Positions 1,152 through 6,641 of a stretch of DNA of 64,000 nucleotides are shown in pieces. Under the pieces are notes generated by a model. That model did not search any database and was not told where the DNA came from. It worked only from the letters and a program-made list of their open reading frames with translations. The stretch's first letter is position 1. Each line of letters starts with the position of its first letter. This DNA is from Candidatus Latescibacterota bacterium (GTDB lineage Bacteria; Latescibacterota; UBA2968; SICM01): assembly GCA_965217865.1 (NCBI GenBank), contig CBDCJO010000002.1, positions 3,776,001 through 3,840,000 of the forward strand. Direction: 5' to 3'. A program made the translations under genes and the position numbers.

Positions 1152-1323
1152 TCATCTGGTTTTCCTCCACTGGAAACGATAAGATCCGGAACCCGTCTCA
1201 AAAGTTACGTAATCATCGGTTTCAGCCGCCGCAAAAATCCCTTCGACTCCCTCGAGTAGTTTACCCTTTTCCCATATCAGAATATTGTTCTCGGTAATCG
1301 TAACATGTTTGAATCCTATTTTG
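1152..1323 (-). pseudogene. C-terminal fragment of the GH78 alpha-L-rhamnosidase-like gene, detached by insertion
   Basis: Removing 1324-3471 rejoins ...AKICIPKIG with FKHVTITENNILIWEKG...VTFETGSGSYRF, a typical GH78 C-terminal ending (GSGxYxF). Confidence 0.9.
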
Positions 1324-1418
1324 GGCAATAATATACTTGACAAATCACCATGATACAGAGATCGTGGCTGGTCTAGAATTGCAAGAATTGGCTCAGTCCA
1401 TGTTAAAGGGTTCATAAA

Positions 1419-1677
1419 GTGCGAACAGCGATTCTTTCTCAAAGATTTGAAAAGGAGCTGTCTGAAATTGAACCAGATGTTGTTCGAGCCGACGAATTTG
1501 TGTTCGCATCTGATTGTGGTATTGTGTCGAAACCCAAGATCTGGTAGCAGGACAAGTCAATCATCCGTTTGGTTTTTTCCTATCTGCGAAAATTTGCCCG
1601 ACAGTCCGCCATTTGTTATCTACTATACTTTCGACGATACGAACGTGTATTTTCTTTCAATCCAAATATCTGGGTAG
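1419..1677 (+). pseudogene. RelE/ParE-like small protein, frameshifted
   Basis: GTG at 1419 gives MRTAILSQRFEKELSEIEPDVVRADEFV, which continues after a frame change as VLCRNPRSG...PPFVIYYTFDDTNVYFLSI. Size and the C-terminal beta pattern resemble RelE-fold proteins (inference). Confidence 0.45.
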
Positions 1678-1681
1678 TCAT

Positions 1682-1855
1682 TTGACACATAACAAACGGT
1701 CTGTTCCCACTCAATCAGACACGTCTTGGCAGCGGCTGGATCGTGCGTTTCGGACCACTCTGGGCGTTTCGAAAGATGCACTACTGAAGGAAGAGGCTAG
1801 GTTGAAGCGATTGCACCAGAAGGCGCGGGCCAAGAAACCGGTAGTGTCTCAGTAA
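1682..1855 (+). CDS. Small basic helical ORF resembling those found downstream of IS1595-family transposases
   Basis: WQRLDRAFRTTLGVSKDALLKEEARLKRLHQKARAKK. Start codon uncertain. Confidence 0.4.
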   Translation: MTHNKRSVPTQSDTSWQRLDRAFRTTLGVSKDALLKEEARLKRLHQKARAKKPVVSQ

Positions 1856-1864
1856 GTTGGGGCA

Positions 1865-2689
1865 ATGAGTATGAAACCAAAGATATTTTATGGTGATTGT
1901 CTGAATGTGATCGCGTCCGGCAAAGTCAAGCCGGTAAATCTGATTTTTACATCGCCGCCCTATGCAGACCAAAGGAAGAGCAACTATGGTGGCATCCATC
2001 CTGACAGATACGTTGATTGGTTTCTGCCAAGGGCGGAAGCATTACAGACATGTTTACAACCCGATGGCTCGTTTGTTCTTAATATCAAGGAAAAGGTTAT
2101 AAATGGCGAGCGTCACACCTATGTCATCGAACTGATATTAGCTTTGCAAAAGCAAGGATGGAGATGGGTAGATGAATATTGTTGGCATAAGAAGAACTGC
2201 TATCCTGGAAAGTGGTCGAACCGGTTTCGTGATTCATGGGAGAGGCTGTTGCATTTTACCCTCAACAAAAAATTCAAGATGCGACAGGAAGCGGTCATGG
2301 TGCCTACCGGCGACTGGAGAAAAACCCGGTTACGAAACTTATCCGATACGGACCATATCCGTGATGAATCCAAGGCTGGGAATGGCTTTGGGAAACGAAT
2401 TTCAAATTGGGTCGGTCGCGATAAGGCGTATCCGACGAACGTGCTGAATCTTGCCACGGAGTGCGGTTATAAGGGACATCCAGCGGCCTTTCCGTCATCT
2501 TTGCCTGACTGGTTCATTCGATTATTTACGGATAATGGCGATACGGTGCTTGATCCTTTTGCCGGGTCGGGCACCACGTTGGTCGCAGCTCATGGGCTGG
2601 GCCGGAACAGCATAGGGATTGATACGATAAGGGAATACTGTGATATGATGCGTGAACGATTCAAATCTTCAAGCGAGGTTATGCTTTGA
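1865..2689 (+). CDS. Site-specific DNA methyltransferase (N4-C/N6-A, beta class)
   Basis: Catalytic TSPPY near the N-terminus, HPAAFP, and SAM-binding LDPFAGSGTT near the C-terminus. Confidence 0.93.
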   Translation: MSMKPKIFYGDCLNVIASGKVKPVNLIFTSPPYADQRKSNYGGIHPDRYVDWFLPRAEALQTCLQPDGSFVLNIKEKVINGERHTYVIELILALQKQGWRWVDEYCWHKKNCYPGKWSNRFRDSWERLLHFTLNKKFKMRQEAVMVPTGDWRKTRLRNLSDTDHIRDESKAGNGFGKRISNWVGRDKAYPTNVLNLATECGYKGHPAAFPSSLPDWFIRLFTDNGDTVLDPFAGSGTTLVAAHGLGRNSIGIDTIREYCDMMRERFKSSSEVML

Positions 2690-3442
2690 AACCGGCATGG
2701 TGGTCTGAGGTAGAGCAGGATGCGGATAAGACGATAATCGGCTTTACGGACAAATTAAGGAAAAAACTTATCGAGTCTCCGGAAAAGATTATCAAACGAA
2801 AAAATCCGTTTCTGTTCCGCATCCGCATCGTTAATGATGTTGATGAATTGGCAGATATGATCCTGAATGCCTACTTGTCTTCCAGTGAAGAGACGATGTT
2901 CGGTAATATCCTGGAAGAGATCGCGGTTTCTATTTGCAAGCATGCAAAAGGAGGTCGGAAGTCGGGAATTCATAATATCGACCTGGAATACGATCAAAAT
3001 GAAATCCGAACGATTATCCAAATCAAATCGGGAATGAACTGGGGCAACTCAAGCCAACAAAAAACTTTACGGTCATCGTTTGAGACAGCTACAAAGGGTT
3101 ATTCGGCAAGGCCGGAAGCAACACGTTCGGTGTATTGAAGGCATCTGCTATGGGAAGAGCGCGATTGAAGATAAAGGCGGACACATACGGCTTGTAGGAT
3201 ATTGCTTTTGGAAAGATATTTCCGATTGGGATTATACGGCAAAGGGAGTTATGGAGATGCTGGGCAAACATGCCGATAATGGTTTACATGTGTTTCGCGA
3301 AGTAGCCCATGGGCTATTGGTAAAGTATCTTCGTTCTTCTGGTGTCGTCACCGATGGAAATATTTGTTGGAACAGATTGCTCGATCTGGTCATGAGTAGT
3401 GGCAACGTTCCTCCCTCCCTCCCCTTGAATTCCACAAAGTGA
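2686..3442 (+). CDS. Type II restriction endonuclease, PmeII/EcoO109I-like, with one frameshift near 3093
   Basis: KRKNPFLFR, SSSEETMFGNILE, GGRKSG..IDLE, QIKSGMNWGNSSQ. ORFs 2686-3138 and 3080-3442 join if one A is removed from ACAAAGGG. Overlaps the MTase stop. Confidence 0.8.
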
Positions 3443-3463
3443 TTTGTCAAGTATATTGTTGCC

Positions 3464-6400
3464 CTATTTTGGGTATGCAGATCTTTGCCGTACTGTTGAC
3501 AGGAGTACTTGCTTCCAGGGTAAACTCATCTTCCTGGTAATGCCATTGGGAAAAGATGGTTCCTCGTACGGTCTTATGCCAGGCTTTCGCGTATTTCAGT
3601 CCTTGGGGGACGAAAGGCTGAATGATAATTTGTTTAAATCCCGGCGTAACGGGATCAGGGCTAAAGTATGCCGGCCCTTGAATTCCCGCCAGGTCGTTGT
3701 AAAAGAAATGATCGATGGTGGTAAACATAGCCATGCTCAACCGATCGTCGTTGGTCGAATGGGCACCCCAGGATTCCCAGATCGTCGTCGCCCCCTGATC
3801 GACCATGTACCCCCAGCCGGGATAATCCAACCGACTGACCAGGTTATACATTACCTCGCCGTATCCGTATTTGTTTAAGGCCTCCATCAGCGCGGTTGTC
3901 CCGATGATGCCGGTGTGATGATGTCCGTTATACTTGGTGACGATGTTATCAACGATGTTGTTCGCTACCTCTTTTTCTTTTGTGTCAGGCGTCATGCCAA
4001 AAGTCAACGGTAAGAGGTTACAGGTTTGCGCTCCTGTGGCATATTGATTCGTTGACGGATGGAACCACATTTCGTGAAACGCCTGGTTGATATTCTGGGC
4101 CAACTCCAAATATTTAGCTGCTTCCTCGTCATACCCCAGAAGTTTCGCAACCTGGGATACGAGCCGGGCGTTGTTATAATAGAATGCCGTTTTGATGAAA
4201 GGGAAAGGCGTTTCCGGTGACATCCATTCTTCTTTACCCGGTGCCGGCCCCGGCAGCATGTGGTCGCCATAATAGCCGTATTTCAAAATAAATCCGTCGG
4301 CTTTTTCGATCAGATTCTCCAGCCATTGTTTCATGCTGGGATAATGCTCCTCGAGGATACGCTTATCCTCGTAATATTGATACACGTACCATACCGCTAT
4401 GGGGTAGTTGCCGGCCCAGGCGGGATCGCCCGTATGCCGGTTTTTAGGGGGATAATTGGGAATAATATCCGGGATTATACCGTCGGCATGCTGGGCATAT
4501 TTCGCATCGTCGAGATACTTTTGCCAGAACAAAGGCATATAAATCCGGGGATACAGGGTTCCCGGCGTGCTGCCCGGCTCGAGCCACCCCCAATGTTCCG
4601 TGTTAATACAATCCATTTGAATGCCGTACAGCTCATTCTTAATGGTTTGACGAACATTCGCATGGATCCGATTCAACAGGTCATTCGAGCAGTCGAATCC
4701 TCCCGTCATATCGACGGCGTTATAAGCCATTCTGCCGATGACATCCTGTTGCGTTAGGTTGCCAGGATAATTGTCGATTTGCACGTAACGAACGGGATGG
4801 AACGTAAATCGCGGTTCATACGCTTCACCTTTCGGATCCCCTTTCAGGATATAAATATCCCTTGACCTCCCGCCGGGAATCTCTTTCAGGAACCCATCTT
4901 CCCGAAGCAGCGGCGCATATTTGATGGTAATTTCCCTGCCCGCTTCGCCTTGAAATTGAAATTTAGCCCAACCCGCGTAAAGCGTGCCAAAATCATAAAG
5001 GTGCGTTCCCGGCGCGGGTTGGTGAACTGATACCGGTGTCAGATTGTCATTCACCTTGATCGGCGGCAATAACTGCGACATCATGATCCCACCTGGACTT
5101 TTCTGGATTGATGCCTGAGTCCAGGGGGAATCATCATAGCCGGCGCGTGCCCATCCCGGTTTTTCCTTACGGGCATCATAGACTTCGCCGCTAATTATGC
5201 TGTTATGGGCAATAGGGCTTTCCGATGTTTTCCAGCTTTCGTCGCTTTTCACAATTAAGGTTGCGCCGTCCGTAAATCGGATATGCATCTGCAACAGAAG
5301 CCGGGGAGAGGGACAATAGGCCGGGCAGAACCAGCCGTTGCCCAGCATGACGCCTACGGCATTGGCGCCTTGTTGTAGCCTGTCCGTGACATCATGGCTA
5401 ACGTAGAATATCCGTTTGCCGTAATCCGTCGTCGCCGGATCGAGCGCCCGGTCGCTCACTTTCTGACCATTGATATATAACTCGCACCAACCCAAGCCGG
5501 AAATGTAAATTCGGGCTTGTGCGATCGGCTTGTCGATAGAAAACTCTTTTCGCAGCAAAGGAGAAAACCGTGCTGAAGCGTGTCCCGTTCGAGCATGATT
5601 TTCATGACCGGAACTATCGCGAAGATCCCCCTCGAATTCCCACCAGCCCGCCAGAGCTTTATCCGGCACGGAACCGAGTTTATACATATTTGTGATTTCA
5701 TCGTTGGAAAGAGCTCTGCGATAAATCCGGACATCGTCGATGGCGCCGTCAAACAATTCCTCTCTGCCTCCGTAAGAACCAATATAAACGTCGCCTGTAC
5801 CGGTGGTTGACAACGAACCGGCTACCGCCCAGCTTCCTGCCCGCACCCCGTCAAAGTAAATCCGGATGTGAGAGCCATCGAAAGTCGTCGCAGCCAGATG
5901 CCAATTCCTGTCCGCGAGAATCGATGAATCCACGGCTGCGCTCTTTTCATAATACGTACCGTTAATGACGAATCCGCAATGCAGACCCTGTAATGGCTGT
6001 TTTTCGCCGACGGCCAGCAGCCATCGCCCCTCACTACCGTCACTTTTACGGATGATACACTGCCACTCCGGAGTATAATTCCCCTGCTTGATCCAGGCGC
6101 TGATAGTCATGGCCTCGGTCGGCTTGAACTGGTCATGATGGGGAATGTGGATAGAGGAATTTATGCCGCTGAGATCCAAAGCGTAAGTTTTCCGCTTGCT
6201 GTTTGTCAGGAACTCTCTTTCGACATATTTCACGCTGGAACCTGCACCAATCCATGTAGCCTGCCAATCGCTTTTCTGCAGCAGTCCCATTTCGAAGGTT
6301 GCCGGTTCACTCCACGCAGATGACTTGCCGTCTTTATCCCACACACGAACCTTCCAGTAACATCTTTCCCCGCTCGTTAATGTTCGCCCCGCGCAGCAAA

Positions 6401-6641
6401 TGTTCACGGATTTATCAGAAAATACTTTTCCGCTGTCCCATTTGTCGCCAATGTTAGACTGGAGTTTTTGCTCGTTGCTGGCCGCCAGAACCTGGTAGGC
6501 CGACTGCATTTCGCCTCGCCGAGAAGATTCCAACCGCCAGCTAAATCGTGGCGCAGGAGTGTCTATACCCAAGGGATTCTGAGCATATTCACAACTCAAT
6601 TCCTTGATGGTAATTGCCAGTGCTTTCATCAATGCGACCAA
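3464..6641 (-). pseudogene. GH78 alpha-L-rhamnosidase-like protein with inserted LamG/ConA domain, interrupted near its C-terminus
   Basis: EYAQNPLGIDTPAPRFSW, LLRKEF, GEVYDAR, PRFTFH, GATTIWESW. LamG motifs WHLAATTFDG and FDGAIDDVRIY. Confidence 0.88.

Follow-up and report, generated by a model that had tools for sequence, protein, structure and literature searches.

The window analyzed here, a 64,000-nucleotide stretch of a Candidatus Latescibacterota genome (contig CBDCJO010000002.1, positions 3,776,001 to 3,840,000), contains a 2,140-bp element at positions 1324-3463, inserted in a gene of the GH78 alpha-L-rhamnosidase family. The G+C content of the element is 45.5%, versus about 55% for the genome. 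Its terminal inverted repeats (TIRs) are 25 bp each with one mismatch between them; the left TIR lies at 1324..1348 on the forward strand, and the right TIR, which pairs with it, lies at 3439..3463 on the reverse strand. The left TIR starts with GG and contains TTGACA, and the same 21- to 25-mer opens autonomous elements of the insertion sequence (IS) family IS1595. Both flanks carry the 8-bp target site duplication (TSD) CTATTTTG, at 1316..1323 on the left and at 3464..3471 on the right. The TIR pattern was matched 2 times in the window versus 0 times in 100 shuffles. A first-pass annotation, made from the window's letters and open reading frames (ORFs), had reported these ends, the exact TSD, and restoration of the GH78 frame on removal of the element, as well as a cargo consisting of a RelE-like ORF, a small basic ORF, a DNA methyltransferase (MTase), and a restriction endonuclease (REase) whose stop codon (3440-3442) lies inside the right TIR. 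All of these features were reproduced.

The GH78 gene is encoded on the reverse strand. Its 5' part (3447..6641) encodes 1,064 amino acids (aa), and the final 53 residues are severed, with the detached 3' end of the gene at 1152..1323. In silico excision of the element makes a 1,113-aa GH78 frame with Pfam rhamnosidase domains whole again. The empty-site allele that the first-pass annotation had proposed seeking was found in the host genome (G000:C2:2620637-2625391), with a lone copy of the target sequence (C2:2621689 region) and an intact GH78 paralogue, and also in public contigs. This region is a 4.76-kb duplicate that differs from the filled copy by one single-nucleotide polymorphism and one 2-bp insertion or deletion. 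The filled and empty GH78 copies are on the same contig, 1.15 Mb apart, with unlike unique flanks outside the 4.76-kb repeat. Eight public sequencing runs (X1-X5, X7, X8, and X9) were compared with the window contig by contig. The empty joint, at which 2,148 bases are skipped (2,140 + 8), was present in three of the four public runs of a later mapping set, and only the empty GH78 form was present in X8, from a third study. Because the duplicate is nearly identical and the empty copy is intact, the insertion appears to be younger than a recent duplication and to have struck a redundant GH78 copy. The host genome is rich in IS, with several families represented by dozens of near-identical copies each, and segmental duplications of 3-7 kb are also present.

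Intact and broken genes of the cassette

The MTase gene (1865..2689, forward strand) is intact and encodes 274 aa. It was assigned to PF01555 (E value of 5e-43) and, by PADLOC, to MTase_II, and it has the SPPY and DPFxGSGTT motifs; we take it to be a beta-class enzyme, likely an N4-cytosine MTase. It is 79% identical to a same-phylum homologue and has one Pro-to-Ser change in a GKWPNRF motif that close homologues keep. The REase gene (2686..3442, forward strand), the start of which overlaps the MTase stop, belongs to the EcoO109I/PmeII family of type II endonucleases, and its plasmid homologues carry a PmeII-family annotation. PF14511 was recognized in both of its pieces, which are separated by a +1 frameshift at about 3093-3098, so that the reading frame breaks after about residue 137. 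Relative to P0123, a single-ORF homologue of 242 aa, the pieces show 72% and 61% identity, and the close REase homologues are one ORF of 238-269 aa (80 hits in a search limited to proteins of at least 238 aa). Homologues terminate a few residues past LLDLVM. In the window, the natural stop is lost at about 3397, and frame 2 adds about 15 codons up to the TGA inside the right TIR. This extension beyond the end of the homologues suggests that the stop within the TIR is likely a scar of capture.

The RelE-like ORF (1419..1677, forward strand) occupies the toxin position of a Panacea pair and has a +1 frameshift at about 1500-1517. One intact homologue, P0002, was found via the C-terminal piece. 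An AlphaFold2 (AF2) model of P0002, built on an alignment of 133 of the 150 homologues listed, had a predicted local distance difference test score (pLDDT) of 94; the single-sequence model had a pLDDT of 43 and was unusable. In the Foldseek search with P0002, all 32 rows listed were members of the RelE/ParE superfamily (HigB, ParE, RelE, YoeB, YafQ, and kin), with probabilities of 0.96-1.0, TM values of 0.6-0.78, and a best E value of only 1e-3. Those Atlas neighbors of P0002 that have a family were RelE/ParE (0.89-0.90). Pfam support was weak, with 11 of 133 family members matching PF05016 at E values of up to 0.01 and none above the cutoff, and the toxin profile retrieved nothing from PDB sequences beyond chance matches to coiled coils. 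The model nevertheless predicts a RelE/ParE fold for this family, in agreement with the first-pass label. The RelE-like query matched the host alone among 168 same-phylum genomes and, in the phylum to which G168 belongs, 4 of 401 genomes.

According to the first-pass annotation, real frameshifts would leave the MTase-REase pair inactive. X1, X2, and X3 covered all of 1296-3506, with neither a gap nor a differing letter, and both frameshift sites were covered gap-free in X4 and X5; X7, X8, and X9 covered the element only in parts. X1-X5 represent two studies, X1 is possibly the source sample, and X2 and X3 come from one sample. Gap-free recurrence of the frameshifts in contigs from two studies rules out long-read errors as their explanation; each of the two genes, RelE-fold and REase, holds a real +1 frameshift. 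Thus, only the MTase and the small ORF are intact in the cassette. The assignment of the cargo to a type II MTase-REase (M-R) pair holds for both families, but the pair is not a complete type II restriction-modification (R-M) system: the MTase is intact, with its catalytic and S-adenosylmethionine-binding motifs, and the REase is frameshifted. To judge from its sequence, the cassette likely retains, at most, the function of a solitary DNA methylase.

Autonomous relatives and the deletion

IS1595 elements are bacterial relatives of the eukaryotic Merlin elements. Exact searches with the TIR gave 11 metagenome loci and 113 genome matches, 80 of which came with DNA, so that 91 loci were examined in all; 71 of the 80 genome-match titles were Acidobacteriota. 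A paired element of at least 1.5 kb (range, 2.0-4.3 kb) was found at 65 of the 91 loci. All 65 have an IS1595 transposase next to one end, and 55 have an exact 8-bp TSD, which supports the IS1595 origin of the cassette ends that had been proposed. These ends and the parent clade may belong to the ISNwi1 subgroup. The transposase of one such element, L056, matches NF033547 (E value of 6e-54), and the transposases of the parent clade share invariant C36/C39/C55/H59, D138, D209, and E242. One locus, L091, was considered as a sister transposase-less cassette and rejected, as its left end is absent and the locus is split by two other IS. In a same-class genome (L038/L042, G012:C1), a 1,264-bp autonomous IS1595 element is inserted in a homologue of the window MTase; its ends have 2-3 mismatches in 21 positions to those of the cassette, yet its transposase is only 33% identical to that of L056. 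The end sequence has stayed conserved even where the transposases have diverged widely.

The cargo of the relatives was surveyed by scanning 88 of 118 candidate ORFs, with 30 mostly short ones omitted. Pfam hits were obtained for 22 of the 88, including DUF3800 (11), PIN-type (3), and AIPR (2); Panacea, RelA_SpoT, DUF433, DUF6941, Clp protease, and TonB_C were each found in a single ORF. Among the identified cargo of this IS1595 clade, DUF3800 proteins are the most frequent (11 loci, L024-L117), and their genes are mostly transcribed inward from the far end.

Some relatives proved to be collinear with the cassette. In these parents, the order is left end, transposase, Panacea antitoxin (PF13274), RelE-fold gene, small ORF, and right end. 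The parents L161 and L162/L164 (the same as L168-L170), located in G333 and G184, are 69% identical in DNA to nucleotides 27-516 of the element, a match that begins 2 nucleotides inward of the left TIR; L170 is a complete element of 2,216 bp. L056 shares the parent gene order and has a more distant toxin-fold gene. Directly inside the left TIR, the window sequence at 1349-1411 encodes 21 aa, 15 of which are identical to the C terminus of the parent Panacea protein (E value of 3e-6). The 3' remnant of this Panacea/DUF4065 antitoxin gene (1349..1417, forward strand) thus comprises about 21 codons and the stop, with a deletion junction at about 1349. The assignment rests on the close parents because a generic Panacea C-terminal hidden Markov model (HMM), built from 120 homologues of the L056 Panacea protein, scored the remnant at only 3.8 bits, outside the top 15 hits of the genome.

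No transposase remnant was found in the element, with a best E value of 0.02 when reading across stops, and the alternative that 1350-1860 is a decayed transposase was rejected on the same search; the cassette lacks a transposase, as the first-pass annotation had stated. One deletion of about 1.6 kb took the transposase gene and about 90% of the antitoxin gene, running from 1-2 nucleotides inside the left TIR to the final 21 Panacea codons. The Panacea remnant and the collinear parents therefore point to a deletion, and the suggestion that a toxin-fold gene had replaced the transposase does not hold: the RelE-fold gene belongs to the ancestral cargo, in which it lies downstream of the Panacea antitoxin gene as its partner. 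The Panacea toxin-antitoxin (PanAT) pair is incomplete here, with the antitoxin reduced to the 21-codon remnant of the full PF13274 protein of the parents. A contig of X8 (depth of 2) is about 95% identical to the window over 1350-1832, with one base fewer at about 1517 and unlike sequence on both sides; it is consistent with an undeleted relative that lacks this M-R pair, and the depth of 2 permits errors.

Two further observations concern elements with Panacea genes. L169 and L170 (G184:C27) are inverted parent copies 52 kb apart whose target duplications are exchanged, a sign of inversion between the two; Panacea is intact in them and the RelE-like gene is broken. In the host genome, an autonomous 2,226-bp IS1595 element present in three identical copies (G000:C2:4296392-4298617, C2:898860, and C1:384767) carries a Panacea gene (PF13274) and an overlapping ORF of about 140 aa with hydrophobic segments, a candidate second Panacea pair.

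The M-R pair has a wider distribution. Homologous pairs were found in 11 of 168 same-phylum genomes, host included, and in 4 of 401 genomes of the phylum of G168, with one marginal match counted in each figure. Among 15 M-R loci examined, one (L176/L189, in a same-phylum genome) proved to be a 3,142-bp IS1595 element that is autonomous and flanked by an 8-bp TSD. Its ends are unlike those of the cassette, and its MTase and REase are 72% and 47% identical to the window pair. The closest M-R pair (L175; 79% and 62%) has no TIR-TSD pair on its 4.8-kb contig. Thus, with the same M-R family aboard the autonomous L189 element, this family is a recurrent cargo of IS1595 elements.

Probable movement of the cassette

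In our reading, which we put at roughly 60%, the cassette is a transposase-less deletion derivative that likely moved in trans into the GH78 duplicate and is now at most a lone methylase. It works like a non-autonomous IS1595-type element, with passenger genes between IS ends, either stranded or once-hopped. The starting point was a cargo-carrying autonomous IS1595 parent with the order transposase, Panacea, RelE-fold gene, and small ORF. The type II M-R pair, which lies between the small ORF and the right end, would have been captured there, and the deletion removed the transposase and most of Panacea, leaving the ends. Capture, deletion, and frameshifts probably all preceded the last hop, in which the cassette would have entered one of the two duplicate GH78 genes in trans, using a transposase that is now absent or a cross-reacting resident one. 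Loss of the antitoxin and of restriction may have favored the frameshifts, and the small ORF would have been left in the cassette as an orphan, without its transposase.

Movement in trans is judged probable, in part from the flanks: the 4.76-kb duplicates differ by two events only, which leaves little time for a deletion and two frameshifts in place. In addition, the host carries transposase-less families with similar ends that have multiplied in recent time. A 344-bp family has six full-length hits, five of them at 97-100%, with ends 1-2 mismatches in 21 positions from the cassette TIR, and a 232-bp family has 13 copies (98-100%) with ends 2-4 mismatches from those of the cassette. A 775-bp host cassette without transposase, present in three identical copies (e.g., C2:869386-870160), carries a 208-aa passenger, and its ends match those of a resident autonomous 4,602-bp IS1595 element, the two forming an autonomous/non-autonomous pair.

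As for these host elements themselves, the 344-bp element (e.g., G000:C2:3276768-3277111) carries an ORF of 75 aa, coiled-coil-like and preceded by a strong ribosome-binding site, and is a tiny cargo cassette. The 4,602-bp element, whose transposase has 298 aa, is present in two copies (G000:C2:4587905-4592506 and 312143-316744), and its cargo is an MTase-like ORF with an HNH-like tail, by motifs read by eye, split by another IS. A truncated transposase near a closer TIR (C2:1073749 and C2:3767251) was considered as a partner and rejected, being a fragment of an 897-bp IS beside a miniature end of the 232-bp type.

Several findings weigh against this reading. The cassette is present in one copy only in the 6.43-Mb assembly. 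The search for an autonomous partner that had been proposed succeeded in part: autonomous relatives with this TIR occur in other genomes, but no autonomous element with the TIRs of the cassette was found in the host assembly, and so mobilization in trans is inferred. The closest collinear autonomous ends differ from those of the cassette at 6 of 21 positions, and the resident 4,602-bp element's own ends are also 6 of 21 away. The host genome has 48 PF12762 matches, and its best transposases are 36-40% identical to the parent transposase. In a 26-row tree, from which two intended rows were dropped as empty, none of the seven host transposase types grouped within the parent clade (96/99 support); deeper placement in this tree is limited by long branches. 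None of the 65 paired relatives lacks a transposase, so that the sister cassettes with other cargo that had been expected were not encountered among them, and this M-R pair was found at none of the 91 TIR loci. Finally, the contigs of X2 and X3, which are from one sample, break next to the deletion junction, at 1352, and X5 has 10 unaligned bases before 1352; there is no break and there are no unaligned bases at 1352 in X1 or X4. The break could reflect an undeleted copy in the population, which would favor deletion in place.

The main alternative is that an autonomous element entered GH78 with its own transposase and then lost the transposase and Panacea in place, never having moved as a cassette. 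The single copy, the lack of a parent-clade transposase among the host types tested, the autonomy of all 65 paired relatives, and the irregularities at 1352 in X2, X3, and X5 all agree with it. However, the deletion, and possibly both frameshifts too, would have had to occur within the time of two changes per 4.76-kb flank. Moreover, the frameshifted form was present in all five runs covering both sites, the deleted junction was present in X1-X4, and similar ends have evidently moved in trans in this genome. We regard deletion in place as the less likely course, and movement of an already deleted cassette remains the preferred reading.

A working defense/addiction cassette, as the first-pass annotation had put forward, would require that a toxin gene replaced the transposase and that the frameshifts are assembly errors or sites of programmed +1 frameshifting. 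The MTase is indeed intact, its stop is overlapped by the REase start, the REase pieces are still 61-72% identical to intact homologues, and the RelE fold is real. Against this, both frameshifts were reproduced in contigs of two studies, an outcome that the first-pass annotation had itself named as refuting, close REase homologues are single ORFs in the size-limited search described above, and the Panacea remnant and the parents indicate deletion and not replacement. The antitoxin is lost, and promoter-like sites in the element number 3 versus 4.5 expected by chance, the promoter/terminator scan being at chance level. This proposal is largely refuted, and we consider it very improbable. It is equally improbable that the assembly merges two strains, one with the filled and one with the empty allele, with the insertion a strain polymorphism and not a hit on one paralogue: the contamination estimate of 9.3%, an element contig depth about half of the flank depth in X1, X2, X3, and X5, and the empty form alone in X8 would fit, but the copies are 1.15 Mb apart on one contig with unique flanks that differ beyond the repeat, a duplicate also gives a 2:1 ratio, depth is no copy number, and the nature of the element is unchanged either way.

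The small ORF and comparison with known systems

The new lead from this locus is the family of the small ORF (1682..1855, forward strand), which is intact and encodes a basic, helical protein of 57 aa from a TTG start that is also found in L161. An HMM of the family matched 72 of the 91 loci and 62 of the 65 paired elements, whatever the cargo, with 0 hits in their flanks (422 kb). The small ORF is convergent with the transposase gene in 41 cases and in tandem in 21. Codon-position entropies were 1.28, 1.06, and 1.66, and pN was 0.22 versus a pS of 0.67 over 270 pairs, which are non-independent and were chosen at an aa identity of at least 60%, a choice that favors low pN. These patterns indicate purifying selection on the family. 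No Pfam, NCBIfam, or PDB sequence match was found for the small ORF, and in the Atlas it falls only in unnamed clusters of up to 1,072 members. In a six-frame scan of the host genome, the HMM detected the window copy alone, and it matched no ORF at 20 host transposase loci.

Two observations concern similar small genes elsewhere. The cargo of alphaproteobacterial plasmid IS1595 elements ends in a hypothetical gene for a basic helical protein of 46-62 aa (L191:5274-5459, L193:3122-3310, and L194:4160-4300). The small basic end ORFs of three of four such plasmid elements were not matched by the HMM, and the end genes of L191, L193, and L194 are possibly distant members or analogues of the family. 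A 394-bp IS1595 deletion derivative with a transposase scrap in the host genome (G000:C2:5688986-5689378) has a short lysine-rich ORF that is like the family by eye and is unmatched by the HMM.

Because the small ORF persists while the cargo changes, binding to the transposase was modeled, using the small protein of L056 with its own transposase, 32-row alignments, and one transposase chain. The complex score was 0.81 (0.81, 0.83, and 0.81 in the runs), and the best of three controls scored 0.00. The mark applied to this score is reached by 116 of 157 solved complexes versus 2 of 215 mismatched pairs and is rough here, as our own alignments were used. The runs shared at least 83% of contacts, and the partner had a pLDDT of 71. 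The transposase profile had no PDB sequence match, which makes it less likely that the predictor merely reproduced a similar known complex. The modeled interface involves residues 12-39 of the small protein, which include the two most conserved columns, and residues 4-11, 24-29, 69-91, and 117-130 of the transposase, a region that we take to be a zinc-finger/helix-turn-helix (HTH) domain from its invariant Cys and His residues. One point weighs against carrying this result over to the window: the modeled complex is that of the L056 pair, and the window protein is identical at 16 of the 23 interface residues.

The small ORF is thus predicted to encode an accessory protein that docks on the N-terminal zinc-finger/HTH domain of the transposase, and from the docking site it would most likely damp or tune transposition. 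There is also a weak hint that the small protein resembles the C-terminal helix of the transposase: hhalign placed it there with a probability of 2% and an E value of 0.023, and in 17 of 32 related transposases the best window of a position-specific scoring matrix, which mostly scored low, fell within the last 45 residues. It is conceivable, at odds that we place a little short of even, that this IS1595 clade is a two-protein system in which a lysine-rich helical protein of 50-60 aa, docked in a groove of the transposase, switches or tunes transposition, perhaps by mimicking the C-terminal helix. In that case, transposase-less cassettes that keep the small ORF could regulate autonomous elements in trans. 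A literature search found no paper title or abstract start on an IS1595 transposase-binding small protein; ISfinder, TnPedia, and most subscription papers lay outside this search. A conserved partner protein whose predicted interface is specific offers a cheap test of how IS1595 elements control their movement and that of defense-type cargo.

The cassette itself is a known kind of object, in decay, and should not be promoted as a new defense/addiction module. Its value is as an unusually well-documented route from a cargo-carrying IS to a transposase-less cassette, for which the parent, a near-parent, the deletion junction, and the empty allele are all known. It qualifies neither as an autonomous member of IS1595 nor as a complete R-M system or Panacea pair.

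Transposase-less R-M cassettes are already in print: Furuta, Abe & Kobayashi 2010 (PMC2853133) described a type II pair within 65-bp inverted repeats in Xanthomonas oryzae and a IIG unit within 26-bp inverted repeats in Neisseria gonorrhoeae, and raised the movement of R-M units in trans. Like those units, the cassette has R-M genes within imperfect inverted repeats, an 8-bp duplication, a known empty site, and no working transposase. Unlike them, it has an identified autonomous parent family and a mapped deletion, its REase is broken, and it retains an accessory ORF together with what is left of a Panacea-toxin pair. The supplementary table of that study, with 24 systems flanked by inverted repeats, may hold closer cases.

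Mobile insertion cassettes (MICs) and transporter IS (tIS) have been defined (PMC3129680 and PMC11891212), as have the features of the IS1595 family (PMC8101967 and PMC12561309), whose elements have just one transposase gene according to PMC8101967. The cassette shares with IS1595 MICs and tIS the TIRs starting with GG, the 8-bp TSD, the passenger genes, and a derivative without transposase (PMC3129680, PMC11891212, and PMC8101967), and its parent transposase has the NF033547 match and the N-terminal zinc finger of the family (PMC8101967). It differs from MICs and tIS (PMC3129680 and PMC11891212) in that its cognate transposase was not found in the host assembly and in the near-constant presence, in the parent clade, of a small helical ORF for which no description was found.

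PanAT systems pair Panacea with mRNA-interferase-like toxins and occur near transposases (Kurata et al. 2022, PMC8832971). The same arrangement is seen here, with a Panacea gene immediately upstream of and overlapping a small toxin-fold gene and a transposase adjacent. Unlike PanAT, the cassette keeps only 21 Panacea codons, its toxin-fold gene is frameshifted, and the family of that gene has no Pfam match above the cutoff (PMC8832971).

The small ORF, finally, invites comparison with proteins that other elements encode besides their transposase. In other IS families, such accessory or regulatory proteins include InsA of IS1, OrfA of IS3, and Inh of IS50. IS605-family elements encode a further one, Arc (bioRxiv 10.64898/2026.09.24.754181). 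Like all of these, the small ORF encodes an element-borne small protein that is retained with the transposase regardless of cargo. However, Arc, InsA, OrfA, and Inh are DNA-binding repressors or truncated transposase products, whereas the small ORF is a separate, often convergent gene whose product is predicted to bind the transposase.

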